A stretch of 44,757 bases of DNA from IMG/VR virus record IMGVR_UViG_3300045988_163046. One strand, 5' to 3'. The stretch comes from a virus. The notes beneath the pieces were generated by a model. It did no database searches, was not told where the DNA came from, and saw only the letters and a list, made by a program, of their open reading frames with translations. Below, in pieces: positions 4,526-42,692 of this stretch; positions within the stretch are counted from its first letter, which is position 1, and every line of letters begins with the position of its first letter. The position numbers and the translations under genes were made by a program.

Positions 4526-5425
4526 CTACTTTCTTTTCGCATAGCTCAATGATTCAAGATTCTGCTTTTTCATTTTCCGTGTTGTGCGAACATAGATTCT
4601 TGTAGTTTCTAAACTAGAATGGCCCAAAATGTCAGCTAGTTCTGCAATCGCATTTTCACCATTCTGCATCAAATACTGAATCGCAAACAAATGTCTGAAT
4701 GCATGAGGATGTACTTTACCAAGCTTAATTCCTCTGCATTTACCAGCAACCATCTTTAAGTCTCTAGACAACACACGAGCGTTTACAGGACTTTTCTTAT
4801 CAGAAGATGTAAATATACACCCTTCTTCAATTTTGTTGTCCTTGCAATATTTTAGAAGCTCTCGCCGCAAGTCTGAACGTAGAATGATTCCTCGACCTTT
4901 TCCTTTGTTCATAACATACACATTGTCATCCGTTACTGCTTCTACAGTAAAGAACTGTAGTTCGCTCAAACGAATGCCCGTATACCCAAACACCTTCATA
5001 ATCTCGTATAAGTCCATACGATTGATTTCACGAGCTTTTTTCAATAGCCTTTGAAATTCATTAGGCTCTAAAATATCATCCAAAGAATCATCTTTCTGGA
5101 CTCTCACGTTCTTCAATAAATTCTTTGAATAATATTTCTTTAGCTTAAGAAAATTAAAATCATCATCTGAATCAATGATTTCGCTATATTTAATAAATTT
5201 GTTTATGATCACAATATAGTTGTTTACTGTACTGATTTTATAATCATGCAGCAGTTTATCTTTCACACCAACTATATCGCTCTTTTGTATTTCACCATCA
5301 GGCAATGAGTTAACAAACAAAGTAGCAACATACTTGTATTTACGAATGGTATTCTTACTTTTCTCATCCGCTGTTTCTTCTTCAATAAACCCGTCAATTT
5401 TTGTTTGTAACTCATCCTTAGTCAT
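4526..5425 (-). CDS. Tyrosine recombinase, XerC/XerD-like (second recombinase of this genome)
   Basis: Catalytic signature GIRLSEL, HPHAFRH, LGHSSLETTRIYV. N-terminal SAM-like core-binding domain. Confidence 0.85.
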   Translation of the reverse strand: MTKDELQTKIDGFIEEETADEKSKNTIRKYKYVATLFVNSLPDGEIQKSDIVGVKDKLLHDYKISTVNNYIVIINKFIKYSEIIDSDDDFNFLKLKKYYSKNLLKNVRVQKDDSLDDILEPNEFQRLLKKAREINRMDLYEIMKVFGYTGIRLSELQFFTVEAVTDDNVYVMNKGKGRGIILRSDLRRELLKYCKDNKIEEGCIFTSSDKKSPVNARVLSRDLKMVAGKCRGIKLGKVHPHAFRHLFAIQYLMQNGENAIAELADILGHSSLETTRIYVRTTRKMKKQNLESLSYAKRK

Positions 5426-7896: not shown

Positions 7897-8298
7897 ATGG
7901 ATGATAATATCGGTTCAAGAGTCAAAGAGATTCGACAAGAATTGAATTTAAGCATGGAAAAATTTGGTGCTCCTATCGGAGTTTCAAGAAGTTCTATTAA
8001 TAACATCGAAAAAGGACTTCATCATCCATCAGAAATCGTTATTAGATCCATATGTCGTGAATATAATATTGACTATGCTTGGTTAACAGAAGGTATTGGT
8101 GAAAATAAATTTATTTCCATTCCTGAGTCAAAGATAGATCAAATCATGGAAGATTATGGCTTAACTGAAAAAGAACGGCCACTTGTTCGAGGATATTTGG
8201 AAGCGCCCGAAGAAGTCAGACAACAAGTTGCCGATTATTTAAATTCAATTGTTGAAAGAGAAATAGCAAGAAGAGAAAAAGAAAAGAACAACAAATAG
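7897..8298 (+). CDS. XRE-family HTH repressor (cI-like)
   Basis: IGSRVKEIRQELNLSMEKFGAPIGVSRSSINNIEKG is a classic HTH_3. It is divergent from the early operon. Confidence 0.8.
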   Translation: MDDNIGSRVKEIRQELNLSMEKFGAPIGVSRSSINNIEKGLHHPSEIVIRSICREYNIDYAWLTEGIGENKFISIPESKIDQIMEDYGLTEKERPLVRGYLEAPEEVRQQVADYLNSIVEREIARREKEKNNK

Positions 8299-8384: not shown

Positions 8385-9398
8385 ATGAAATTATTCAAAA
8401 CTATTGGGATTGCTACGCTTGCACTATCCATGTGCACAGGATGTACAAGCTACAAAGAAAGAGTTAAAGCCAACAATCAAACAGAAGAAATAACTGACAG
8501 AGAATCAGATGATTTAAAAGCAAATTCTTTTGAAATTGGTGATTTTACTATATACTTACCTGAGTATTTTCAAAATGTCGTAAGTACAAAAGAAGGGCTA
8601 TCATTCAGGGCGGATGAAGGATATCCTATTTTAACCATCACTTTAATGGATATGGAATTGAATAGTGAAGCAGCGGATGCCTTTATGGATGCTTTAAAAG
8701 ACAGAGATGATTTCATGGAAGATACCGATACAAGTTATGGAATAAGAACATTAAAAAGAGCTGGTCGTACTGTATATTATTCAGAAACAACAGGAAATTT
8801 GACGTTAAATGATGATGACAGTGACAACGATACAAGCACACCGTCAAAATGCTTTATATATCTTTTATCAAATAACAATAAAACATCATTTATCAGTATG
8901 ATATTAATTCAGCCTAACGAAGGATTGAAATACGATTACGAAAATGAATTTGATAACATTGTTGATAATGTAGTTGTTAACGATAAAAAAGAGGAAGAAG
9001 AACAAAGCAATACAAATTCAACCACTTCAAATTCTTCTTCAAACAATTCATCTTCTTCACCAACTACAACTACTCCAAGTACAAATTCAAATGCATCAAC
9101 TCCATCTCCAACAACAGGAGAAAAAAATGCACTAAGAACTGCAAGAGAATATTTAAATATTTCTGCATTCTCTTATTCAGGATTAATTCATCAACTAGAA
9201 TATGAAGGTTACTCAACAGAGGAAGCCACTTATGCAGCTGATAACTGCAACGCAAACTGGAACGAGCAGGCCGCTAAATCAGCAAAAGAATATTTAGACA
9301 TATCGTCCTTCTCTCGACAAGGATTAATAGATCAATTGATTTATGAAGGTTATACACAAGAACAAGCAGAATATGGTGTAACACAAAACGGATATTAA
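8385..9398 (+). CDS. ltp: Ltp-family surface lipoprotein (superinfection-exclusion type)
   Basis: Signal peptide with a lipobox-like LSMCTGC, an S/T/N-rich linker, and two C-terminal Ltp repeats (NALRTAREYLNISAFSYSGLIHQLEYEGYSTEEATYAADN / AAKSAKEYLDISSFSRQGLIDQLIYEGYTQEQAEYGV). Confidence 0.8.
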   Translation: MKLFKTIGIATLALSMCTGCTSYKERVKANNQTEEITDRESDDLKANSFEIGDFTIYLPEYFQNVVSTKEGLSFRADEGYPILTITLMDMELNSEAADAFMDALKDRDDFMEDTDTSYGIRTLKRAGRTVYYSETTGNLTLNDDDSDNDTSTPSKCFIYLLSNNNKTSFISMILIQPNEGLKYDYENEFDNIVDNVVVNDKKEEEEQSNTNSTTSNSSSNNSSSSPTTTTPSTNSNASTPSPTTGEKNALRTAREYLNISAFSYSGLIHQLEYEGYSTEEATYAADNCNANWNEQAAKSAKEYLDISSFSRQGLIDQLIYEGYTQEQAEYGVTQNGY

Positions 9399-11069: not shown

Positions 11070-12167
11070 TTATAACAACTTATTCATCATATCAACAATG
11101 CTCTTATCTTTTGTATCAAACCAGTGTGCATATGTATTGTGCAATGTTTCAACTGTATCTCCTAAGCGTTTGGCTATGTCAAAATCTGAGAATCCAGCTC
11201 CAGCCATGTTATTAATTAGAAATGATGCGTGTGAATGTCTAAAATCATGAATTCTTATTTTAGGCAATCCATCATCTTTTTCTTTTGCCTTATTATATGC
11301 ATCATCAAATCTTCTTTGTACCGTTTGAGGTGATATTGGTTTATAGTATCCAAATACAAATTTATCTTTTGTGAAATCATCCCATTTAGAACATTCTAAA
11401 AACCATTCTCGAAGCATTTTAGACAATGTATTAGGCATTGTGATAGTTCTATAGCTATTGTTTGTTTTTGGCGGTGTAAGCCATTTATTAGGGTCTTTCT
11501 CTTTGTATCTATATGTTTTGTTGATGTCTATAGTTTGTTTTCTAAAATCAATGTCCTTCCATTGTAGGGCCATGGCTTCACCTTTTCGTAATCCCATATA
11601 GAATAAAACAGAATAAAAGCATTTCATCATTTGTTCATCCACTTCTTCAATGAATAAATCAAAATCATATTGCTGCCATATTGTCATTTCTTCTTTTCTT
11701 TCATTCAATCTAAGATCACGTTTTACATATGTCATTGGATTGGTTGGAATGTATTCAGAAGTAACACCAAATTTATATAGCTTATTTAAAAAGAAATATA
11801 TTCTTGATACGTATGCTTTTGAATATTTCTCATCAAATTTGTTGATCAAGTTTTGCATTTGCCTTTTATCTAGAAAATCAATATCTTTCATTTCCTTAGA
11901 AAGAACATTGTACAAATATTCATCTGATTTTAGTGTTGATTCTTTTACATATTTTTTATTATATTCTTTAAAAGCTTTATATAGTCTATCAAAATTCATA
12001 TCTGATGGAAGCATAAAGAAATCTTTCCTAAATTCAATCTCAGCTTTTTGTGCTTCCCATTTAGAATCAAAACCACGCTTACGATATCTCTTTATACATT
12101 TACCATCTTTATATATTTTCCCGGCAAACATATATTTTCCTGTTTTCCTATCTAATTCCACTGCCAT
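11070..12167 (-). CDS. int: Tyrosine integrase
   Basis: MGLRKGEA, RIHDFRHSHASFLI, LGDTVETLHNTYAH. An N-terminal AP2-like arm-binding region is present. The gene is adjacent to the putative attP. Confidence 0.9.
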   Translation of the reverse strand: MAVELDRKTGKYMFAGKIYKDGKCIKRYRKRGFDSKWEAQKAEIEFRKDFFMLPSDMNFDRLYKAFKEYNKKYVKESTLKSDEYLYNVLSKEMKDIDFLDKRQMQNLINKFDEKYSKAYVSRIYFFLNKLYKFGVTSEYIPTNPMTYVKRDLRLNERKEEMTIWQQYDFDLFIEEVDEQMMKCFYSVLFYMGLRKGEAMALQWKDIDFRKQTIDINKTYRYKEKDPNKWLTPPKTNNSYRTITMPNTLSKMLREWFLECSKWDDFTKDKFVFGYYKPISPQTVQRRFDDAYNKAKEKDDGLPKIRIHDFRHSHASFLINNMAGAGFSDFDIAKRLGDTVETLHNTYAHWFDTKDKSIVDMMNKLL

Positions 12168-12478: not shown

Positions 12479-13555
12479 TTATTCAATTTCTGTTAACGGT
12501 GTTGGATCAACCCAAACGCCACCAATCTTGACAATATTTTTTTGAACATTCACTGCATCGACTCTGATTCTAGATACGTAGACTACTGCATTTGTGGTAT
12601 GCAGTACATTGTCATTATATCCATCTGAATTTGGTACTTTATCTACCATACGAATAGGAAACCAACCTCCTAATTTAGACAAGTAGCAGCATAAATCATC
12701 GCCAATTTTCTTCAAGCCTTGGTTGCCAATTTTCATATGTACAGATGTAACATAGCTTCCTTCATGCAAGATTTGGTCGATAGTTTCTGCGCTAGACTGT
12801 GTAGCGCCTACTGGTGTATGGGGATCTGTATCAATACCAGCATCATTAGTCCATCCAATCGCTACTCCATTACGATCAACACGATATGGATATTTTGTTC
12901 CTTTAATTACTCTACCAATGACACCTGACCAATCACCTTTTTTAACTGTAGAAGTTCCGTAGCAATTCACACTCAATGTGTTTGTACAGATAGGTAAATT
13001 AACTGAATATTTTTCTCCACTTGGAGTTGTAGGTTTTGGTGTTTCAACCTTTCCATCTAACTTTGCATTTACTTCATTAGCCAATTGTGGCATACGTGCT
13101 TCCAACCATGCTCCAGGACATGATGTAGCCGAAAACATTTTGTGCATAGTCAATGATCCGCTAGAATTTCCTGTATAGTTCAATCTAAATCCATATCGTT
13201 TACAAATATCAACACATAGGTTCACCAAGCTATCCCAAGTAGCTTGCGTCATTTCTCCAGTTGCGTTATTAATGTTTCCACATTCAATTGTAATTGATTG
13301 AGAATCATTCAACCAATTTGAACTTGTCCATGCAGCATTTTCTTCATCAACACTGCATGCAATGTCTCCATTAATTCCAATACAATAATTGGAAGATGCT
13401 TGACGAGTATTTCGTGCAAAATAATCTGCACATTGTTTACCACTCCATGCCGCAGCCATGTAGTGTGGAGTGATTTTACAAACCTTATATCCAAAACGAC
13501 CATCATAATGTTGTGATGTTCTGTTACAATATGTTGCTAATCCGGAATACGACAT
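12479..13555 (-). CDS. Endolysin: N-acetylmuramoyl-L-alanine amidase (Amidase_2/PGRP-like) plus C-terminal wall-binding region
   Basis: ITPHYMAA...SSNYCIGINGDIACSVDEENAAWTSSN...SITIECGN. It is the last gene before attP and lies downstream of the holin. Confidence 0.85.
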   Translation of the reverse strand: MSYSGLATYCNRTSQHYDGRFGYKVCKITPHYMAAAWSGKQCADYFARNTRQASSNYCIGINGDIACSVDEENAAWTSSNWLNDSQSITIECGNINNATGEMTQATWDSLVNLCVDICKRYGFRLNYTGNSSGSLTMHKMFSATSCPGAWLEARMPQLANEVNAKLDGKVETPKPTTPSGEKYSVNLPICTNTLSVNCYGTSTVKKGDWSGVIGRVIKGTKYPYRVDRNGVAIGWTNDAGIDTDPHTPVGATQSSAETIDQILHEGSYVTSVHMKIGNQGLKKIGDDLCCYLSKLGGWFPIRMVDKVPNSDGYNDNVLHTTNAVVYVSRIRVDAVNVQKNIVKIGGVWVDPTPLTEIE

Positions 13556-32511: not shown

Positions 32512-33712
32512 TGTAACTAATTCCTCCTTGATTTGATTTAGTTACCTGGATATATTCACCTCGAATAAAACGTTTCTTACCTTCATCATTTGGTAAAGGC
32601 GCTTTATTCATAATATTTAATGCCCCGTTTGTATCAATCATTCCACGATCAAACATTTGCGTTGCAACATTCAATTTTGTTTGTGTTGAATCATACTGTA
32701 AACGATCGCTTGTAAGAATGATTTCACTACCATTCATAATCTGATTTACGGAATATAACATTCCACTCAATACTTCTCCAACTTCAATAAAGAATGGTTC
32801 AATAATTGATTCATAAAATGCATTCCATTCATCAGGTTTATATTTATTTTGTAAAATAGCTTCACTAATTCCAAAATAGCTGTATACACTATTTTCAATG
32901 GCTTGCTTCTGCTTGGCATCCACTAATAGTGGCTTGCTTTCAATCGGTTTTACTTCATCAAAACGATTATCAACAAGGAATACGCCTGTTTCATTTTTGT
33001 TCAGGTTATTTCTTAAGATCATGTTCTGTTGTTCCTTGTAATCTTCGTCATCATCAATTGGTGTTGAAATTCTAGCCAAGAATCGAACAATAGAACTCGA
33101 CTTAATCGCATTGATTGCTCCTTCTTCCTGAGCAAGCATCAATTTAGCTGTTGTATCAAATGCATCATTAGTGTCACCAAAGTAATCATTTTTATACTGC
33201 ATTTGTCTTAGATGTCCTACTTTGCTGTATTCAATCAATTTTTCTTCGCCATAGATGAAATTAAAATAAATATAAACTTCACCATTGATTTCTTTTAACT
33301 GACACTGACTCGGAACAGCAGGCCATAATCCTTTAATCATTCCATATTCATCTTCAATTGGAATAATGAAAGCATTGTTTTCTGCAAAGTATATGGTTGC
33401 CAATCTTTTATAAAATTGACTAGCCGTCATATAAGGATTTGGCTTTTTCTTAACCAAATAGTTATATATCTTGCCTTTGTAGTCTTTGTTTGTCAATTCA
33501 GGTGAAGCTTTTCCACATGAAGTAGCAATTCGATTGATACATGCTCTGCATAGTCCAATCTCATATATTCCACCATCATATGATGAATACACTGGTGAAT
33601 ATCCACCTAAGCTTGCAAACATTGAATGTAATTGATTTTGTTTAGGTGCTGGCTTATTTAGTCCTAATAGACTTCCTAGCAAACCAAATCTTTTTCTTCT
33701 GCTTTTAGCCAC
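32429..33712 (-). CDS. Portal protein (HK97 family)
   Basis: 427 aa, immediately after TerL with an overlapping stop/start. Confidence 0.9.
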   Translation of the reverse strand: MAKSRRKRFGLLGSLLGLNKPAPKQNQLHSMFASLGGYSPVYSSYDGGIYEIGLCRACINRIATSCGKASPELTNKDYKGKIYNYLVKKKPNPYMTASQFYKRLATIYFAENNAFIIPIEDEYGMIKGLWPAVPSQCQLKEINGEVYIYFNFIYGEEKLIEYSKVGHLRQMQYKNDYFGDTNDAFDTTAKLMLAQEEGAINAIKSSSIVRFLARISTPIDDDEDYKEQQNMILRNNLNKNETGVFLVDNRFDEVKPIESKPLLVDAKQKQAIENSVYSYFGISEAILQNKYKPDEWNAFYESIIEPFFIEVGEVLSGMLYSVNQIMNGSEIILTSDRLQYDSTQTKLNVATQMFDRGMIDTNGALNIMNKAPLPNDEGKKRFIRGEYIQVTKSNQGGISYNGETEPQQNPNAINSVSDESGDGKQTD

Positions 33713-35370
33713 TAATTCACCTTCCTTTTCTTGTTTTCAAGGCGGTATTTAAATGTATCCCACCATTTTTGTCTTACTGTATATGCATCAATAACAGATG
33801 CATATCCATCAATATGTTTTCTTGGATCAGTTTTAATCATGCGTACACGATTGTCCTCCGCAACTTTCTTTAATGCCACACTAGACATATGTGCTTGTAA
33901 AAGTCCATTTGTTCCTGTATGAACAAATCCATCTCTTACATATCCTGTAAATTCATTAATAACCGGTGTAAGGTTAGTTCCTTGAATTACATCATCCATC
34001 TTGTATCCATATTTCTTCATATCATCCACAAGATACTGAGCCGAATAACGGTCATATCCAACGACTACACAATAAATCTTGTATTTCTTACGTAGCATTT
34101 CAAACCATTCCGTAACATCTTCATACCGTACAAAGTTTTCCCCACTTGGGCTTAAATATCCCAATTGAATAAATCTTGTATATGGTATTTTGTCTCTTTC
34201 TTCTAGCTCCTTGATTTTTAATGTTGGAAGCCAAAAATGAGTAAATATGTAGTCCTGTTCTTGAATTCGTATAACTACAGATGCGGCTGTTAAATCGGTT
34301 GTTTGTGACAAGTCAATTCCACCAACTGCATATGTATGTGCAAAATCTTCAAATCTAAGTTCTTCACCTTTAACTTTGTTAATATCTTCCGCACTAAACA
34401 GTGCTTCTGTTGAATTCTGTTTGATATTCGCATATTTTGTTATAAACTCCGCCTTATATGTCGGTGAGCTATGTGCTTTTAAAATTTCATTCTGCAAATA
34501 TTCATAAGAAACTGATATTCCAAGGTTTGGCATTGCTTTTCTTAATTCAATAGGATCATCCCATTTTTGAATATCATCAATCATATAAAAGAAAGGTAAC
34601 ATTTGTTTTTCATCAGACGTACCTAGTAAAACAGATGTTCCACGAACAAATAGTTCATCATATAATCCTTCATCAATATAGTTTGCGGTACTTACAGGAA
34701 TATAAAGTGGATCAGGTCTTGCCCCGCCTGCCGATAACATAACGTTGTACATTTTCATACCTGCTTCACCTTCCCAGGCTGCAAACTCATCAAAGATTGT
34801 CAAATATGGGTTGAATCCATCTGATTTTTTAGATGCAAAGGCAATTGGCTCCCATCTACAGTTGTTCTGTTTCATGTAGATATCTGTTCTACGTTTTTTT
34901 ACTCTTTGACTCAACGCTTTAGAGTGTTCCATCATTTGATACAAAACGTTGTAAATGATCTGCGCTTGTTTTAACTTTGGCGCTATATTGTATATCTGCA
35001 TACCTGCTTCATCAGATGTAAATCCAACATCAAGTTCAATACCTGCACAAAGAAATGATTTTCCTTGTTTTCGGCCCATGACCGTAGGTATTTCACGAAA
35101 CTGCCTTTTTCCATTCTTATCAACAAGCCCGAATATGCACGCAATATAGTATTTTTGCCAAGGCTCAAGCTTCACTTTTGTTGTTTTTCCTTCTACGTGA
35201 TGACAAAACGTTTCAATAAACGCTATATGCATTTCCGCTTTTTTCTCATCATAGAAGAAATCTCCATTTGCTAAACCTCTTTCAACATATTGAAGATTAA
35301 GCTTTATCCACTTACCGACTACATCTTCACCAGATTTAATTCGCTCTTTATAAATGTCTAGATATTTCAT
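33712..35370 (-). CDS. terL: Terminase large subunit
   Basis: Walker A-like MGRKQGKS, a DEF Walker B region, and a C-terminal nuclease domain. 552 aa. Confidence 0.9.
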   Translation of the reverse strand: MKYLDIYKERIKSGEDVVGKWIKLNLQYVERGLANGDFFYDEKKAEMHIAFIETFCHHVEGKTTKVKLEPWQKYYIACIFGLVDKNGKRQFREIPTVMGRKQGKSFLCAGIELDVGFTSDEAGMQIYNIAPKLKQAQIIYNVLYQMMEHSKALSQRVKKRRTDIYMKQNNCRWEPIAFASKKSDGFNPYLTIFDEFAAWEGEAGMKMYNVMLSAGGARPDPLYIPVSTANYIDEGLYDELFVRGTSVLLGTSDEKQMLPFFYMIDDIQKWDDPIELRKAMPNLGISVSYEYLQNEILKAHSSPTYKAEFITKYANIKQNSTEALFSAEDINKVKGEELRFEDFAHTYAVGGIDLSQTTDLTAASVVIRIQEQDYIFTHFWLPTLKIKELEERDKIPYTRFIQLGYLSPSGENFVRYEDVTEWFEMLRKKYKIYCVVVGYDRYSAQYLVDDMKKYGYKMDDVIQGTNLTPVINEFTGYVRDGFVHTGTNGLLQAHMSSVALKKVAEDNRVRMIKTDPRKHIDGYASVIDAYTVRQKWWDTFKYRLENKKRKVN

Positions 35371-35741
35371 TTAAATCTGCTCATGAACTCATCCAATTCA
35401 TCACCTTTTTTTCCGGATACTTCTGTTGTTTTTGAAAGTGAAGTAGGTGACAAGCCAAGTTCTTTGCAGTACTTCATGATCTGATCACGTAATTGAACGG
35501 TAATAATGTAGTATGGCGAGCGTGATAAATTCGTTGCACCGCCCTTGTTCGTATATTCAACAACCATCTGTAGTGATTTGTATCCATTTGCTTTACTTGA
35601 ATCTCTCCATTGCTTCATTGTTGAATCATATTGTGCCAAGGCATCCGCAAGTGAATCAACCGCAACCGAATATTCAGGAGAAAATGTGCCTAAATTCTCT
35701 AGTTGTGAATTGATTCTTTTTTTCCATGCTCCTTTTTGCAT
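35367..35741 (-). CDS. terS: Terminase small subunit (P27 family)
   Basis: The pattern ...YTNKGGATNLSRSPYYIITVQLRDQIMKYCKELGLSP is typical of P27-family TerS. GGAGG RBS. Confidence 0.75.
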   Translation of the reverse strand: MQKGAWKKRINSQLENLGTFSPEYSVAVDSLADALAQYDSTMKQWRDSSKANGYKSLQMVVEYTNKGGATNLSRSPYYIITVQLRDQIMKYCKELGLSPTSLSKTTEVSGKKGDELDEFMSRFK

Positions 35742-36085
35742 TCATCATCCTCCCTTCCACATCCTATAAGCATTCCGTTTTCATCAAATTCAAAAGATGG
35801 TTTACGTTTGGAATGTTCTTCAGCATGACATAAATCACACAACGCTTCCAAATTAGAATCGCCAAATAGAATGTGTACATCTCTATAGTTATCCTGGTCA
35901 ATGTGTACTTTGTGATGCACACAAGTCGACCTGGTATAGATACCTTTTTTCAAACATCTTTCACAAAGTGGATGTGCCTTTCTATACGCTTTGCTTTTCT
36001 TTTCCCAAGCCTTGCTTGAGTAAAATTTTCTAGCATAATTTCTAGCACCTGTTTTTGTTGCTTCTGAACCATAATATTTTTTCAT
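35699..36085 (-). CDS. HNH endonuclease (packaging-associated)
   Basis: CERCLKKG...CVHHKVHI...NLEALCDLCHAEEH. It lies directly upstream of and overlaps terS. Confidence 0.85.
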   Translation of the reverse strand: MKKYYGSEATKTGARNYARKFYSSKAWEKKSKAYRKAHPLCERCLKKGIYTRSTCVHHKVHIDQDNYRDVHILFGDSNLEALCDLCHAEEHSKRKPSFEFDENGMLIGCGREDDECKKEHGKKESIHN

Positions 36086-36163
36086 ATCGCTACATTCAAA
36101 GTTTTAGTTAACAGATTTAAAGGACGACAATATGAACAGTAAACACTTTGAATGCAGTGATAT

Positions 36164-36195
36164 GAAAAAGACCCGTGTTTCCACAGGTCTTTTTC
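36164..36195. terminator. Bidirectional hairpin terminator upstream of the packaging genes
   Basis: GAAAAAGACC-12 nt-GGTCTTTTTC. Confidence 0.55.
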
Positions 36196-36752: not shown

Positions 36753-36922
36753 ATACATGTATATATTACTAGTCTGTTAACTATATGTTATAAGACTAGA
36801 ACCGAACACGCTTAAAAGCCTTTTAAATAGGCGCTTGCGTGCACGTTTCAAAAACAAAAAGCTTTTTGAAAAAATGAGCACTAAAAAAAATAAGTTTAGG
36901 AGATGTAAACATAGAAGAAAAA

Positions 36923-36946
36923 AGACACGCTCAATTTTGCGTGTCT
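36923..36946 (-). terminator. Intrinsic terminator of the HTH gene
   Basis: AGACACGC-8 nt-GCGTGTCT followed on the minus strand by TTTTTT. It overlaps the stop codon. Confidence 0.7.
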
Positions 36947-37187
36947 AGTCTTTGTTTTCTTGTATATCATTTATATTTAATTCAATTATTTTTTCTTTTG
37001 TTGTCTTGTCAATTATATTTATTTCCAAGCCCATCCAATCGCATAACTTTATAAACTCACCTAAATTCATTCTATCGTTTGAAATCGTGTTACTTAATGA
37101 TTGACGCGTACGGTTTATATGTTTTGCGTATTCTATTTGTGTTTTGTTTCGCATCGTGAACAACGCTTTTATTTTCTCTTTTAACAT
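36945..37187 (-). CDS. XRE-family HTH regulator (second repressor-like gene)
   Basis: MRNKTQIEYAKHINRTRQSLSNTISNDRMNLGEFIKLCDWMGLEI fits HTH_3. It is divergent from a plus-strand operon. Confidence 0.75.
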   Translation of the reverse strand: MLKEKIKALFTMRNKTQIEYAKHINRTRQSLSNTISNDRMNLGEFIKLCDWMGLEINIIDKTTKEKIIELNINDIQENKD

Positions 37188-37352: not shown

Positions 37353-37520
37353 GTGGCAAAGTATAAACGTAGCAAACCGATGAAACGTCGCGATAGAAAA
37401 AAGCGCGAAAAAAAAGAGCGCATGATTTCGTACCTATCCAAAACGTTCGAAATTATATACACGCTCTTAATCGGTGAAGCCCTCAAGCTTCTTGCTAAAT
37501 ATCTAAGTGACTTATTTTAG
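37353..37520 (+). CDS. Small basic protein with hydrophobic C-terminus (GTG start)
   Basis: AGGAGG RBS 7 nt before the GTG. 55 aa: VAKYKRSKPMKRRDRKKREKKERMISYLSKTFEIIYTLLIGEALKLLAKYLSDLF. A hairpin CTAAGTGAC/GTCACTTAG spans the stop. Confidence 0.4.
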   Translation: MAKYKRSKPMKRRDRKKREKKERMISYLSKTFEIIYTLLIGEALKLLAKYLSDLF

Positions 37521-37647
37521 TCACTTAGGTACTTATATTATACCACGTTTTAAAATATGGAACTACTAAAAATAGCGTTATTACTATCGTTAGCATTCAA
37601 TGCATATCTTTTAAAAAAAATGATTGAAAAGTAAGGAGGTTAAAGAT

Positions 37648-38118
37648 ATGTTATCTATTTGTGAAACTTCAACTAAACACGTGGCTTATATGGCTACACA
37701 ATACGACGATTTTGCGCATTCTACAGACGGCGCAATCATGGAAGCGCTTGGCGATGAAATTCTTGAAAATATGTATGATGATGAGCTTCTTCCATTATGG
37801 TTTGAATTTAGAAGTGAACGATATAATGAATATTATTATGAATTAGATAATGATAATCTTGATTCATGTTTATCAAGCTATGAGCCTAATGAAATTGTAA
37901 GAATGACATTGGCTGGTGACTTCCATTATTGTGACGATTATTTCATTATTAATGATTATGAGAATTTAGAAAGTTTTTCGGATTATAGACTATTAGAAGA
38001 AGCTAGAAAAGATGATGAGTTCAAAACTTGGCTTACTGATGAGAAAAGTGACTGGGATATGGACTGGTTAGAAGAAACTAGAAAACAATATTTAGCTTAC
38101 TTAAAAGAAGGGTACTAA
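37648..38118 (+). CDS. Highly acidic protein (DNA-mimic / anti-restriction-like candidate)
   Basis: AAGGAGG RBS. 156 aa rich in D/E/Y/W (for example DEILENMYDDELLPLWFEF, DEKSDWDMDWLEE). No family recognised. Confidence 0.55.
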   Translation: MLSICETSTKHVAYMATQYDDFAHSTDGAIMEALGDEILENMYDDELLPLWFEFRSERYNEYYYELDNDNLDSCLSSYEPNEIVRMTLAGDFHYCDDYFIINDYENLESFSDYRLLEEARKDDEFKTWLTDEKSDWDMDWLEETRKQYLAYLKEGY

Positions 38119-38119
38119 C

Positions 38120-38269
38120 ATGTTAACCCGCAAAGATCTTGACAAGATGAGCGCCGTCCAGGTGCTCATACTTGCGTTTTTAAAATTATATTTAGCAGCA
38201 TGTACATCTGGTTTAATTATGGGCATAATATTGGGCCTTTTAAATATCATACTTCCACTTATTTATTAA
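38120..38269 (+). CDS. 49-aa membrane peptide
   Basis: The ATG lies 1 nt after the upstream stop. Sequence MLTRKDLDKMSAVQVLILAFLKLYLAACTSGLIMGIILGLLNIILPLIY. Confidence 0.4.
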   Translation: MLTRKDLDKMSAVQVLILAFLKLYLAACTSGLIMGIILGLLNIILPLIY

Positions 38270-38286
38270 TTGTAGGAGGTTAAACA

Positions 38287-38559
38287 ATGGAACTTTTAGA
38301 AATTAAATTATTACATAAATACGCAAGAATAAGATCATATATGAATGATCTTATTTCAGGTAATTACATTATTTATGATTTTCATTATGAATGTTTAGTG
38401 GATCATATTGAATCTTTTATTTTTGATCTTGCTTATATCGAAAATAAAAAAGTTATAAATATTTATTATGATCAACTTTTAAACGATTCTAAACAAGTGA
38501 GCAACGAACTTTATACGCTTGTTATAAATATTTTTGAAGATAATGAATGGAGGTTTTAA
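38287..38559 (+). CDS. Hypothetical protein
   Basis: AGGAGG RBS. 90 aa. Confidence 0.55.
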   Translation: MELLEIKLLHKYARIRSYMNDLISGNYIIYDFHYECLVDHIESFIFDLAYIENKKVINIYYDQLLNDSKQVSNELYTLVINIFEDNEWRF

Positions 38560-38561
38560 AA

Positions 38562-38792
38562 ATGAATAATAATGAATATATTGAATTTACAGAAAAAAAA
38601 CTAGATCGACTAAATGGATCTAGCTGCAAGCCTTATACAATAACCAAACATTTAAACGGTTTATATGATCTTAATTATGGTTTAGATACTATTGTTTGGA
38701 TGCTTGAACCGCGCGAACTTTGGCTACTTGTAAATACTTTATATACTTTGGATATTTTAGGAGGGCTTAAAAATGACAATATGGAAGCGTGA
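38562..38792 (+). CDS. Hypothetical protein
   Basis: GGAGG RBS before the ATG at 38562. 76 aa. Confidence 0.5.
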   Translation: MNNNEYIEFTEKKLDRLNGSSCKPYTITKHLNGLYDLNYGLDTIVWMLEPRELWLLVNTLYTLDILGGLKNDNMEA

Positions 38793-39354
38793 GCGAACTC
38801 ACTTTAATTACTACATCACAAATGAAAGAAAACAACCCCACATTTATGTTGAAGCGTTAGGAACTCCCAACGCTTCAACTGAAAAAATTTTAAAAGATCA
38901 TGGTTTTAAATTTGATCATAATAAATGTATGTATGCAGCTGCTCAAACAAATGACTTAAGGCTTTTTGTCGCTCATGATCTTGACAAGCTTTTCAATTAT
39001 GATATTCAAATATACTTCAATGCAGAAGCGAAAAAAGAACTTTTCGCGCCTGATATCCAAGAAATAAAAGATATCTGTTATTTCTTCAAAATTTATAAAT
39101 GTTATATAGATATATTAAATAAGGATCTTTTTAAGATCTGTAAACCAGGTTCAAAAAGCTTGCTGGCAACTTATAATACTAATTCAAAAACTATAGATGT
39201 ATTTAATAGAAACAAATTGCAAGAAAGTTATGTTTACCATGATGGTAAAATCGAAAAAATGAGCATTGAAAAAGCTGCACCAAAAAAGAAGAAGAAAGCA
39301 GCACTTACAGAACAACAAAAGATCAACAAAATGCTGGAAGAGTTTCCGTTTTAA
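38773..39354 (+). CDS. Hypothetical protein with Lys-rich tail
   Basis: GGAGGG RBS. 193 aa. C-terminus PKKKKKAALTEQQK. Confidence 0.55.
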   Translation: MTIWKRERTHFNYYITNERKQPHIYVEALGTPNASTEKILKDHGFKFDHNKCMYAAAQTNDLRLFVAHDLDKLFNYDIQIYFNAEAKKELFAPDIQEIKDICYFFKIYKCYIDILNKDLFKICKPGSKSLLATYNTNSKTIDVFNRNKLQESYVYHDGKIEKMSIEKAAPKKKKKAALTEQQKINKMLEEFPF

Positions 39355-39380
39355 AAAGGACTTGCAAAAGTCCTTTTTTT
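39353..39380. terminator. Strong bidirectional intrinsic terminator between convergent units
   Basis: AAAGGACTT-GCAA-AAGTCCTTT with a T7 run on plus and an A-run upstream. Confidence 0.8.
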
Positions 39381-39518
39381 ATATCCAATTGAATCAACTG
39401 CAAAAAGTTTTTCTTGCTTCTTTTGTTTGAATATAAAAAAGGCCTTAAAAGCTTACTGAAAGCAATTAAAACCCTAATTAATTAACCATCTATATTATAA
39501 ACCGTGTTTTTCACTTTT

Positions 39519-39818
39519 TCAATTTAAGAAGTTCCTCATTTGTCTAGGATCTAGAATACTAAACACTTTCATTAAGTTTGATCTTGAATTAATATAAAAA
39601 TATTTTGAATCCTTTTTGAGACCATTTCCAATTTCTTTATTCAATAACTTTACAACCAAACTATCAAACTTTTCTTTATTGACTTCGAAATACCATACTT
39701 CTTTAGAACCATCTGTTTCTAAAGAAATAATTTCTGCATCATCCGAACATACAACAACTATTGTTGTATCTTTATAACTTATATGAATATCAGTATATAA
39801 AAACTTGTTTTCAAACAT
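39519..39818 (-). CDS. Paralogue 1 of a tandem triplicated small-protein family
   Basis: MFENKFLYTDIHISYKDTTIVVVCS...NKEKFDSLVVKLL aligns with the two upstream ORFs. Confidence 0.6.
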   Translation of the reverse strand: MFENKFLYTDIHISYKDTTIVVVCSDDAEIISLETDGSKEVWYFEVNKEKFDSLVVKLLNKEIGNGLKKDSKYFYINSRSNLMKVFSILDPRQMRNFLN

Positions 39819-39836
39819 TCCAACACCTCCAGAAGC

Positions 39837-40124
39837 TTATTTATCCAGGATTAGAAAAACTTTTTCTAATTGTTCTTGAGACGTTGGAAAAAACTTTTGA
39901 GATTCTTTTTCATGCTTGCATAGAATCGAACCGTCAAAAAACTTTTCCAGCAGCTGAGAAAACTTTTCTTTCTTCACATAATAAACATAATTCACAGGCA
40001 TATCTTCATCATCATGCGCATTGTATTCAAAAACTTTTTCAACCATCTTAGAACAAACAACACTAATTTGTACATTATCATATCTCACAAAAACTTCTTT
40101 ATAAGAAAACTTATTTTCATCCAT
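39837..40124 (-). CDS. Paralogue 2 of the tandem family
   Basis: AGGAG RBS before the ATG at 40124. MDENKFSYKEVFVRYDNVQISVVCS...KKEKFSQLLEKFF. Confidence 0.6.
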   Translation of the reverse strand: MDENKFSYKEVFVRYDNVQISVVCSKMVEKVFEYNAHDDEDMPVNYVYYVKKEKFSQLLEKFFDGSILCKHEKESQKFFPTSQEQLEKVFLILDK

Positions 40125-40146
40125 TTCATCACTCCTAAAAAACTTT

Positions 40147-40500
40147 CTACACATCAGCTAATGTTATCATAAATTTTTTATAATCTTCATCTGACTTTAG
40201 ATAAATCTTATTGCAGCCATTCATTACGTCTTCATAGTTTAAGCAATCAATTTCATTATCTAAAAACTTTCTATATAAACTTTTGAATTGCGGTTCACAA
40301 ATATAATGCTTAATAACGAGTATACCATTCTTATCATAATTACACCTATAAAACTTTTCATCTGCCATATAAACACATACAACACGATCTCCGTATTGTA
40401 CAAATAAACTTTGTGTATTATTGATCATAAACAGCTTATTAAGCTCATCACCTATATTTATATGTTTTTCTGTTAAAAACTTTGGTAATTTGTGTTTCAT
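40147..40500 (-). CDS. Paralogue 3 (N-terminally extended) of the tandem family
   Basis: ...SLFVQYGDRVVCVYMADEKFYRC...EPQFKSLYRKFLDNEI shares the core pattern. Confidence 0.55.
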   Translation of the reverse strand: MKHKLPKFLTEKHINIGDELNKLFMINNTQSLFVQYGDRVVCVYMADEKFYRCNYDKNGILVIKHYICEPQFKSLYRKFLDNEIDCLNYEDVMNGCNKIYLKSDEDYKKFMITLADV

Positions 40501-40565
40501 TTTCTTTACTCCTTAAACTTTTCTAATAAACTTATTTCTGTATAATTATCGTGGAGGATAACAAA

Positions 40566-40655
40566 ATGACAGAAAATGAAAAAAGTAATGATGGTGTTCA
40601 ATCTAGAACTAAAGGCACAGTCAAGAAAGAAATACCATCAGAAGGCGGAAAATAA
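40566..40655 (+). CDS. 29-aa hydrophilic micro-ORF on the opposite strand inside the moron
   Basis: TATAAT at 40541-40546, GGAGGA at 40553-40558, ATG at 40566. Sequence MTENEKSNDGVQSRTKGTVKKEIPSEGGK. Confidence 0.35.
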   Translation: MTENEKSNDGVQSRTKGTVKKEIPSEGGK

Positions 40656-40667
40656 CCTCCATAGTCA

Positions 40668-41264
40668 CTATCGTTGTTCGATGGTGACTATTTTCATTTC
40701 ATCATTAATAAAAACTTTTGCTCCTGGCAATGCACAAGCTTCTGAAAAACTTTTCTCAGATACACTTTTTCTTGGTGCTATAGTAAATTCACCAGTTCTT
40801 TCTGAATGCATTTCAATATATCCACACGCAATAAAACTTCCTTCTCTAGTATAGAAATATCCAATTGTCATGTTATCACTTTCAAAAACATCTTCCTGAA
40901 TAGTTCCAAAAGTCATTTCAGACAATCCTTTGCCTTTTCTAATCAAATTAACTAATGTTCTAAAAAGCTTAATAACATGAGCATGTACAGTAAACGAACT
41001 TATTAATGTTAATAAAAATGTAATCAAAACACTTTTATAAATATTCCATTTCAAATAATCACTAAAGAAGAAGCAAACAAGAATATTAAACAAGGATAAG
41101 ATCATCAAATACAATCTTTCTTTATCTGCTCGGTCTTGTTCTTCAATCACATTTGTGCATGTTAAAACGTAATAATTTAAATATCCACATCCACCTGCTG
41201 CAACAAACGCTAGTAAAACTTCTTTTATGAAATCTTCCACATTATCACTCCTATTTATCTGCAA
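40668..41264 (-). CDS. Membrane protein: three N-terminal TM helices plus a C-terminal soluble domain
   Basis: Hydrophobic segments LLAFVAAGGCGYLNYYVL, LYLMILSLFNILVCFFF and SVLITFLLTLISSFTV. It overlaps the lipoprotein gene by 14 nt. Confidence 0.6.
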   Translation of the reverse strand: MQINRSDNVEDFIKEVLLAFVAAGGCGYLNYYVLTCTNVIEEQDRADKERLYLMILSLFNILVCFFFSDYLKWNIYKSVLITFLLTLISSFTVHAHVIKLFRTLVNLIRKGKGLSEMTFGTIQEDVFESDNMTIGYFYTREGSFIACGYIEMHSERTGEFTIAPRKSVSEKSFSEACALPGAKVFINDEMKIVTIEQR

Positions 41265-41526
41265 TCGTTTCTACAAAACAATTATAATAAACATATCTTT
41301 TTCCATCATAATCAAATTTTACATATCCACCATCATTTGTTTCAATATCAATTCTACCTTCATAGCTTGCTATAATTTTTCCATCTGCTGTATACACATT
41401 AATTATTCTATTCAATCCGCCATTCAAATCTGATTTAACATCAGTGCCAAAACGATCCATAGAAGCACATCCAAACAAGGAAATGCCAATCATTCCAACC
41501 ATTAATAATTTGTATATTTTATTCAT
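41251..41526 (-). CDS. Small lipoprotein (beta-sandwich type)
   Basis: Signal peptide with lipobox LFGC. The mature part DLNGGLNRIINVYTADGKIIASYEGRIDIETNDGGYVKFDYDGKRYVYYN resembles small prophage lipoproteins. Confidence 0.7.
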   Translation of the reverse strand: MNKIYKLLMVGMIGISLFGCASMDRFGTDVKSDLNGGLNRIINVYTADGKIIASYEGRIDIETNDGGYVKFDYDGKRYVYYNCFVETIADK

Positions 41527-41557
41527 TTCATTCCTCTTTTCTATGTCCGATAACTAT

Positions 41558-41566
41558 ATATTATCA
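41558..41566 (-). promoter_or_regulatory. Extended -10 promoter (TGATAATAT) for the moron
   Basis: Read on the minus strand about 30 nt upstream of the lipoprotein RBS. A weak hairpin (41589-41605) lies upstream. Confidence 0.4.
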
Positions 41567-41672
41567 GACTAACTACAAACCTTTTAAAAGCCTAGTGAAT
41601 AGGCTACTTTGTAACACTTTTCTAAAATAAAAACTTTATGAAATTTTCAACCACGTATTTATGCAATTAATC

Positions 41673-41997: not shown

Positions 41998-42228
41998 TTA
42001 ATAACACCTGGTTATCGGAATTAAAGTAGTTATTCTTCCATTGTATACAGGTATCAACGTAGTGCTGCAATGTGATGATGTATTAGACGATGTATCATTT
42101 GAGTCATCAGAAACAACAACTGCACACAACACAATTAAAACAATTGTAATAATAAGCGTACCAAATAATATTATTTCACAGATATAATCTCCAATCCATT
42201 CACCTATTCTTTTTAGCATATCAATCAT
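41998..42228 (-). CDS. Small membrane protein
   Basis: TM segment ICEIILFGTLIITIVLIVLCAVVV. ATGA-coupled to the upstream gene. Confidence 0.5.
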   Translation of the reverse strand: MIDMLKRIGEWIGDYICEIILFGTLIITIVLIVLCAVVVSDDSNDTSSNTSSHCSTTLIPVYNGRITTLIPITRCY

Positions 42229-42692
42229 TTGCTTAAATCTCCCATAACGAGCTTTTTAAGCTCTTTCTTCATTGCGTAATACATTTTCATTCTGCTACAG
42301 TACTTTTCTCCTGAAAGCTTTTCAAATGATTCTCCGTTGATATAATGACGTTTCATATATAAACGAATATCATCATTTGGAATAAGATCAATAATTGTTT
42401 CAGCTTCTCTCATCTTTCCTAAGATTAGATTCTTGTCGTCTTCAAGCACTTTTTCTTTTGAAATAAACTTTACAAGAACATCATTTGTAATATCCATATT
42501 TTTCTTTGAATCCAACCTTTGTTCAAACGATGGAGATTTTGGATCTGAAAATTCTTTTTTGCGAACCTCCAAATCCTTTAAAATTCCATCCAACGATTTA
42601 AACTTTCTTTCATAGATCTTGAACATTTCAAGTTTTTTAATCAGTGTATCCACCTGAACATCTACATATTCTTCATAATCCGTTTTACTCAT
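42225..42692 (-). CDS. Possible late-gene activator (ArpU/RinA/sigma region-4-like C-terminus)
   Basis: The C-terminus IRLYMKRHYINGESFEKLSGEKYCSRMKMYYAMKKELKKL is region-4-like. It is one of the last genes of the early operon, four genes upstream of the moron. Weak call. Confidence 0.3.
   Translation of the reverse strand: MSKTDYEEYVDVQVDTLIKKLEMFKIYERKFKSLDGILKDLEVRKKEFSDPKSPSFEQRLDSKKNMDITNDVLVKFISKEKVLEDDKNLILGKMREAETIIDLIPNDDIRLYMKRHYINGESFEKLSGEKYCSRMKMYYAMKKELKKLVMGDLSK

Follow-up and report, generated by a model that had tools for sequence, protein, structure and literature searches.

The window analysed here is the whole stretch of 44,757 nucleotides (nt) of the IMG/VR virus record IMGVR_UViG_3300045988_163046, and our subject is an accessory block at positions 39519 to 41566. 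In a first-pass annotation of this DNA, a lipoprotein gene, a membrane protein gene and three tandem paralogues (P1 to P3) on the minus strand, together with a plus-strand micro-open reading frame (micro-ORF) of 29 amino acids (aa), had been read as a single self-contained moron expressed in lysogens. We confirmed the five ORFs and the micro-ORF at their places. Comparison with related loci showed, however, that the supposed five-gene unit consists of three separable parts: a lipoprotein of DUF5052 type, the membrane gene with the micro-ORF, and the P1-P3 array. The membrane gene and the micro-ORF are the only true moron of the block, and, judged by gene order, they constitute an undescribed cassette that recurs in numerous prophages of Gram-positive hosts. 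We thus read the block as a composite one with a mobile cassette, in which a membrane effector of phage exclusion or abortive infection (Abi) would be checked by its convergent partner, with lytic, late-type timing in the window phage. We put the probability of this reading at roughly 0.45.

The separability of the parts became apparent from about 60 related loci, which are collinear but differ at the accessory block (coordinates of the window features are given in Table 1). Three loci (L003, L023 and L029) contained the lipoprotein gene, a 106-aa gene, the membrane gene, the micro-ORF and P1 to P3; the 106-aa gene was missing from the window and from most close relatives, and several relatives also lacked P3. 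Another group (L005-L007) carried a YjcQ gene, the membrane gene, P1, P2 and a 183-aa gene, and had neither the lipoprotein gene nor the micro-ORF. In L008-L010, YjcQ was accompanied by a 225-aa in-frame fusion of the transmembrane (TM) part (residues 1-109) to a full-length P1 (L008 8716-9393). The lipoprotein gene, P1-like genes, P2 and P3 were found with the membrane gene absent in L031, L036 and L037. Decayed forms of the membrane gene were also seen: it was reduced to internal-deletion remnants in L032 and L033, a piece of its C-terminal domain and a P1-like part were joined in a three-part 206-aa chimera in L034 (7011-7631), and a 99%-identical copy in L035 (6908-7480), taken to carry a nonsense mutation, was split by gene callers into ORFs of 104 and 82 aa. 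Among collinear relatives the membrane gene, with or without the micro-ORF, was therefore present, absent or decayed, which is the distribution of a moron. Since the lipoprotein is swapped for YjcQ and the membrane gene may be absent, truncated, split or fused, the lipoprotein and the membrane protein do not form the conserved envelope-located pair that had been proposed.

These arrangements bear directly on the earlier proposal that the five genes and the micro-ORF are one lysogen-expressed exclusion or Abi operon, with an envelope pair and with the paralogues as diversified specificity factors. The genes do form a dense array on one strand, bounded by a conserved head element and by terminators, and the in-frame TM::P1 fusion could hint at a link between the membrane protein and P1. 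However, the parts occur independently in relatives, where P1 to P3 are found also when the membrane gene is gone, and the fusions seem to have arisen by deletion in a decaying region. Moreover, distant copies of the membrane gene had lipoprotein or P-family neighbours in none of the loci inspected, the head element is common with the late operon, and the lysogeny module, with an Ltp-type lipoprotein, is located elsewhere. We consider a single operon of this kind very unlikely.

The membrane gene was then followed beyond the close relatives. An exhaustive HMMER search returned 53 representative relatives of about 190-228 aa. In 14 of 14 lineages with readable DNA (Javan133/143, Javan214, phiGBSVK-D, L057, L058-61, L062, L063, L065, L066/67, L068, L070, L071, L072 and the window), the stop codon of the membrane gene was abutted or overlapped by a convergent ORF of 28-50 aa that began with ATG or GTG and was preceded by a Shine-Dalgarno (SD) sequence. 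As a control, the other long ORFs of these loci were searched by the same rule, and only 3 of 138 had such a neighbour. The predicted peptides were hydrophilic, basic and rich in Lys, Pro, Thr and Asn, and some of them had a C-terminal motif in common (STYRPPRPTTNTKEPKR, ASYRPARPTTTTKAPKPKK, DYFKRPTNPTPKNK). An extended -10 box preceded several of the small ORFs and read TGnTATAAT in Javan133 and Javan214. The two RNAs must overlap in Javan214 and L058/L062, since the terminator of the membrane gene, as read from the sequence, sits beyond the small ORF. By this synteny, the membrane gene has its conserved partner in the micro-ORF, and not in the lipoprotein or the paralogues; the pair was found again in other prophages, but the remaining genes of the block did not travel with it.

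Most copies of the membrane family were located in the lysogeny module, by the integrase or the repressor. The cassette lay beside and divergent from the integrase gene in L058, L063, L066/67, L068, L071 and L072, adjoined cI/cro in Javan133/143, phiGBSVK-D and L065, and was found between a host-like gene and ImmA in L059-61. In L057 it came after a weakly NlpC/P60-like protein (below the Pfam threshold), and in Javan214 it was inserted between TerL and the portal gene, as a classic moron. Genes for Abi_2, Abi_alpha and ion channels were among the neighbours. The integrase/repressor zone is the place in which exclusion and abortive-infection genes are carried by prophages of Gram-positive bacteria; an exclusion or Abi role suggested by such a neighbourhood would be guilt by association, not proof. 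In L065 (5001-6290), we observed tandem membrane-family genes (211 and 210 aa) with one convergent 31-aa ORF, directly after cI/cro/HTH_17.

We then investigated whether the micro-ORF, MTENEKSNDGVQSRTKGTVKKEIPSEGGK, behaves as a coding sequence. Its TATAAT box, GGAGGA sequence and ATG, which had been noted in the first reading, were confirmed at their places, and a predicted terminator follows on the same strand. Among 41 loci of the window clade there were 32 unique micro-ORF sequences, with 8 variable sites in 90 nt. Seven of these sites were at codon position 3, all of them synonymous, and the remaining one caused an Ile>Val replacement (binomial P=0.0026); the peptide was identical in 30 of the 32 unique copies. 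Third-position diversity was similar in the micro-ORF (7/30) and in the membrane gene (51/191), and no second frame stayed open across the micro-ORF. Because the variation is synonymous, falls at position 3 and is as frequent as in the membrane gene, the constraint is on the peptide and not on the RNA, and this pattern of substitutions shows protein-level purifying selection on the micro-ORF. In a second clade, the small ORF had 6 synonymous versus 3 non-synonymous codon differences.

Alternatively, the micro-ORF could be untranslated, and the segment could be a structured antisense RNA or terminator, or a promoter region for P1-P3. Strong secondary structure is predicted on both strands for the region of the micro-ORF and the membrane-gene 3' end (fold z = -5.6 on the plus and -6.1 on the minus strand), the leader between TATAAT and ATG is very short in the window, and a minus-strand promoter-like site lies at 40572-40545. 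These features have to be set against the codon-position periodicity, the near-constant peptide and the fact that ORFs of like biased composition, with SD and ATG or GTG, are found in all 14 distant lineages, which have no nucleotide similarity. Absence of translation is thus highly improbable in our view.

The partner of the micro-ORF had been described as a three-TM protein with a cytoplasmic C-terminal domain, and our analysis favours this description. Hydropathy analysis gave clear helices at about residues 43-61 and 68-88 and a weaker helix, bearing GGxGY, at about 5-27; an N-out/C-in topology is favoured because a Lys/Arg-rich stretch follows the last helix. The gene most likely starts at GTG 41240, 10 nt past the lipoprotein stop, rather than at the overlapping TTG 41264. 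GTG 41240 is the start called by gene callers in close relatives, and its AGGAG box overlaps the lipoprotein stop. The protein matched phrog_4525 (E=1.6e-17), a family of unknown function, and shares the architecture of that family, in which GGxGYxNY, INxxR and G140 are conserved. An AlphaFold2 model (predicted local distance difference test [pLDDT] score 88.5) gave nothing below E=0.08 in a Foldseek search against PDB, and a search of genome contigs with the membrane protein gave no match. Three leads were dropped. The C-terminal domain as a diverged P-family domain was rejected by hhalign (probability 0.2%); a 795-aa match to this domain is a MucBP repeat protein and was treated as spurious; and an identity with the exclusion protein of Sfi21 orf203 type was not established, since tblastn with a streptococcal member returned four streptococcal prophages and no Sfi21-like phage.

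Given its anatomy and context, the membrane protein may be an envelope-located effector of phage exclusion or abortive infection, for which the GGxGY helix could mediate oligomerisation and the cytoplasmic domain could be a sensor or gate. The partner would check it at two levels: through the 3' ends of the transcripts, whose overlap would subject the membrane gene to antisense control or transcriptional interference, and through the peptide, which is basic and Lys/Pro-rich and may attach to the acidic cytoplasmic domain.

This arrangement resembles type I toxin-antitoxin loci with convergent, 3'-overlapping transcripts, such as txpA/ratA and bsrG/SR4 of Bacillus prophage elements and par (fst) of pAD1. 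Like these, the cassette combines a membrane product with a convergent partner, whose transcript is predicted to overlap at the 3' end, and with shared or nested terminators, and it is carried on prophages. The pair could thus be an addiction-type toxin-antitoxin system of type I-like geometry, in which the antisense RNA also encodes a peptide and which stabilises the prophage, with no anti-phage role. The convergent genes, the terminators inside or beyond the partner gene and the movement of the pair as a unit on prophages are consistent with this notion. However, type I toxins are hydrophobic peptides of less than 60 aa, whereas the cassette protein has 190-225 aa and a folded C-terminal domain. 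Furthermore, the partner is protein-coding by its constraint, in contrast to a type I antitoxin RNA, and one clade, that of L005, tolerates loss of the micro-ORF with an intact membrane gene. We therefore regard a plain addiction pair as unlikely.

Another precedent in logic may be sieB of P22 and lambda, a prophage exclusion/Abi gene that is tuned by the antisense sas RNA and the internal Esc product. The cassette would likewise join a prophage exclusion/Abi gene to an antisense RNA and a small protein of the same locus. It differs from sieB in host type and has no homology to it, and Esc is an in-frame internal product and not a convergent gene. Gram-positive prophages have exclusion genes of their own, such as those for the Sie2009-type membrane proteins of lactococcal P335 phages and for the Ltp lipoprotein of Streptococcus thermophilus phage TP-J34. 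The cassette is similar to these in that small membrane proteins or lipoproteins are carried as accessory genes, mostly, for this membrane family, in the lysogeny module. However, we found no sequence or profile match to them, the lipoprotein of the block is DUF5052-like and not Ltp, and the window copy lies far from the lysogeny module and runs in the lytic transcription direction. To our knowledge, no convergent translated partner accompanies the known Sie genes, and a literature search for small ORFs convergent with exclusion genes brought up no relevant work. A bolder proposal would be that the cassette is an unrecognised, widespread two-gene system of Firmicute prophages, with an exclusion/Abi effector or membrane toxin and a partner that is at once antisense RNA and peptide antidote or trigger; we regard it as possible but rather unlikely. 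If true, the cassette would unite type I and protein-antitoxin principles, and its membrane component would be exceptionally large for such a hybrid.

We next turn to the timing of the block. The promoter that had been assigned to it, TGATAATAT, falls inside a conserved element of about 100 bp, which comprises a hairpin, GCCTATTCACTAGGC, TTTT and an inverted repeat, GTCTGATAATATATAGTTATCGGAC, that contains the promoter sequence. This head element (copy A) was kept in all relatives regardless of the next gene, be it the lipoprotein gene, YjcQ or an extra 54-aa gene. A second copy (copy B), 73% identical to copy A (E=6e-9), lies upstream of HNH-TerS-TerL and was likewise kept in all relatives. 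The 25-nt core common to both copies, GTCnnATAAnATATAGTTAnCnGAC, occurs twice in the window, against 0 occurrences expected, and never in shuffles. Generic promoter-like matches, on the other hand, were at shuffle level (47 found versus 48 expected). The simplest reading is that the head element is a predicted promoter that depends on an upstream regulator and is used by the accessory block and the late operon alike. Copy B is followed by a hairpin and T7 (36752-36736), and the two together resemble a late control region of promoter-plus-terminator (antitermination) type.

Because the head element is duplicated before the HNH-terminase operon, lytic rather than lysogenic control of the block is suggested. 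In the window phage, transcription of the whole block would probably start at the duplicated element and have lytic, late-type timing, and would not take place from the prophage; we found no indication of the lysogen expression that had been assumed. The block ends, as had been stated, at a bidirectional terminator common to it and the plus-strand island, after a preceding hairpin. The top promoter-like match of the region, TTGAAA-17-TATAAT (11/12) at 39494-39522 on the minus strand, lies on the P3 stop codon and faces the two terminators; it could be due to chance, or else drive a short RNA that is antisense to no annotated feature.

Late-type control also invites the view that the block is a set of lytic accessory genes that serve host takeover, counter-defence or a block of re-adsorption, in which the lipoprotein would mask the receptor, P1-P3 would be anti-defence or takeover proteins and the cassette would be a passenger. 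The duplication of the head element before the late operon, the putative regulator (phrog_36, weak DUF1492) encoded just upstream, the lipoprotein homologues in large Bacillus and Staphylococcus myophages and the ArdA gene in the neighbouring convergent island of relatives all speak for it, as does the small size and acidity of P2 and P3, P1 being near neutral. However, P1-P3 show no homology to known anti-defence proteins, and the late-promoter identity of the element is itself a prediction. We regard this view as possible, if somewhat unlikely, and prefer the exclusion/Abi cassette within a composite block.

The lipoprotein had been recognised correctly as a secreted one, with a signal peptide and an LFGC lipobox. 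Pfam DUF5052 (PF16475) matched it below the cutoff (E=4e-5, 23.7 bits versus 29.4) over profile positions 3-74 of 199, the first ~40%, and phrog_2316, a family of unknown function, matched with E=1.1e-13 over positions 1-89 of 191. Its tblastn matches carried the annotation "DUF5052 family protein". Homologues were found in temperate phages and in large phages of Bacillus, Staphylococcus, Lysinibacillus and C. difficile, those of Bacillus and Staphylococcus being myophages, which we take to be of virulent types. Since both temperate and large phages carry it, the family is not tied to lysogeny. No PF07553 match was found for it in Pfam, so that it is not an Ltp member by this search, and a literature search on DUF5052 found nothing relevant. 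We also considered the lipoprotein and the membrane protein as a spanin pair; this was rejected, since the endolysin is 26 kb away, the host is assigned to Solobacterium, which is monoderm, and the pair is not conserved.

P1 to P3 are indeed paralogues, with P2 matching P3 at E=2e-13 (37% identity) and P1 at E=7e-5; P1 and P3 had no detectable direct similarity and are linked through P2 only. The P2 ORF most likely starts at ATG 40124, which has a good SD sequence upstream. All sampled relatives had P2, and most had P1 and P3, with P3 missing in about ten. Identity between orthologues of different phages was 84-99% for P2, 51-100% for P1 and 65-100% for P3 where present. An arms-race function, which had been suggested by the tandem paralogues, thus finds little favour, as they are old duplicates whose orthologues are kept in each phage, with P2 highly conserved. 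The P family has at least 342 members, and among the 120 listed none had a source-given function name or a Pfam domain. An AlphaFold2 model of P2 (pLDDT 86) gave nothing below E=0.08 against PDB and BFVD in Foldseek. Scattered weak matches of P2 to nucleotidyltransferases were rejected (probability at most 0.25; P1 and P3 conserve no catalytic motif). With their predicted orphan alpha/beta fold, the paralogues are best described as an array of old duplicates with no functional lead.

Several observations weigh against the exclusion/Abi reading. In PADLOC-DB 2.0.0, the lipoprotein, the membrane protein, P1, P3 and the micro-ORF had no match and P2 only matches at chance level (E=0.03), which agrees with the first-pass view that no described defence system has this composition. 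NCBIfam and Pfam gave nothing for the block components beyond the sub-threshold DUF5052 match, and profile searches against PDB sequences gave no match; no function thus came from PADLOC, Pfam, NCBIfam, PDB sequences or Foldseek against PDB, and BFVD was searched with the P2 model only. Decay of the membrane gene is common in this phage group, so that the gene can be dispensed with and may bring little benefit where it lies here. The promoters of the block and of the cassette are predictions, and late timing, if correct, would make a role in lysogen protection doubtful for the window copy. The L005-L007 clade has an intact membrane gene and lacks the segment with the micro-ORF (in L005 the gap between the membrane gene and P1 is 18 bp), so that the peptide is not an obligatory antidote there, which argues against a strict toxin-antidote relation. 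Finally, the small peptides of the different lineages can be aligned only loosely. Overall, the first-pass annotation was largely right in what it observed and only partly supported in what it made of it: its interpretation was right in spirit for the membrane gene and micro-ORF, and wrong about the unit.

The window is a complete, circularly permuted genome of a temperate siphophage. Its sole genome match, an uncultured Solobacterium metagenome-assembled genome, points to the host, and the relatives of the window phage came from human-gut metagenomes. A search of GenBank phage DNA with the 2.5-kb region and with the structural module gave no match, and Rfam had no match within the block region. 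The early genes run from the window start, round via 44757, down to 41673, and 3' of the block come a convergent plus-strand island (37353-39354) and then the packaging genes. The block is thus a variable accessory region between early/regulatory and packaging genes in a temperate siphophage of a Solobacterium-like Firmicute.

Table 1. Positions of the features discussed, in window coordinates
Feature	Position	Strand	Remarks
Repressor-like HTH_3 gene	7897-8298	+	
Ltp-domain lipoprotein	8385-9398	+	337 aa; two Lipoprotein_Ltp domains (PF07553, E=3e-29)
Integrase with Arm domain	11070-12167	-	
Amidase_2 endolysin	12479-13555	-	26 kb from the block
TerL	33712-35370		structural genes reach up to TerL
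TerS and HNH	35367-36085		
Head element, copy B	36772..36871	-	upstream of HNH-TerS-TerL
Block end	39353..39475	-	hairpin with U-run (39439-39475) and bidirectional terminator (39353-39380); fold z = -4.0
P3	39519..39818	-	99 aa; paralogue of P2
P2	39837..40124	-	95 aa; ORF open to 40154; most conserved paralogue
P1	40147..40500	-	117 aa; most divergent paralogue
Indel segment	40525..40673		micro-ORF, its TATAAT/SD and part of the hairpin; in the window clade, not in L005-L007 (blastn break points)
Micro-ORF	40566..40655	+	29 aa; ATG 40566, GGAGGA and TATAAT upstream; convergent with the membrane gene
Terminator of micro-ORF transcript	40661..40691	+	13-bp hairpin and T-run (terminator scan); overlaps the last codons of the membrane gene
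Membrane protein	40668..41240	-	190 aa; GTG start; three N-terminal helices and a small beta-rich C-terminal domain; phrog_4525
Lipoprotein	41251..41526	-	91 aa; signal peptide and LFGC lipobox; short DUF5052/phrog_2316 relative
Head element, copy A	41545..41643	-	~100 bp; hairpin, TTTT and inverted repeat
Putative regulator	42225-42692		155 aa; just upstream of the block; phrog_36, weak DUF1492

The Ltp-domain gene lies directly after the HTH_3 gene and ~30 kb from the block. By gene order and domain content, this is the canonical Ltp-type superinfection-exclusion position of the window phage, and the gene beside the repressor is its evident candidate for exclusion on the lysogen side. The integrase gene listed in Table 1 is probably the true one, because of its Arm-binding domain and its endolysin neighbour; a second tyrosine-recombinase gene (4526-5425, minus strand) is situated within the early operon. 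A gene at 41998-42228 (minus strand), located between the putative regulator and the block, encodes a single-pass membrane protein of 76 aa (phrog_30457) whose tail is rich in Ser, Thr and Asn. On the other side, an 80-aa ORF at 36945-37187 (minus strand) has a small helix-turn-helix-like look and no Pfam match; it and the plus-strand island are divergently oriented, and a bidirectional terminator (36923-36946) and head-element copy B follow closely downstream of it. This region may be a second regulatory node. The gap of ~690 bp between copy B and HNH has no convincing ORF and may for this reason hold the cos region, and a long hairpin-forming stretch at ~36060-36190, just upstream of the HNH start and overlapping it, gave only sub-threshold Rfam matches of microRNA type. 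ArdA, an anti-restriction protein, is encoded in the adjoining convergent island of some relatives (L005 12531-13031, also L006), which suggests that the zone between early and late genes is a general hotspot of accessory and counter-defence genes.

Small convergent genes are routinely missed in annotation, and the micro-ORF is one with a clear coding constraint, of a type that is linked to the membrane family across distant prophages, from Streptococcus to gut Erysipelotrichaceae. The whole of 39519-41566 mixes three unrelated parts, and the unit is corrected here accordingly. With its two copies, the 100-bp element gives an entry point to late-gene control in a group of uncultured phages. 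If the pair is functional, it would be a new anti-phage or addiction module, with unusual sense/antisense-plus-peptide control in a compact format of about 0.75 kb.

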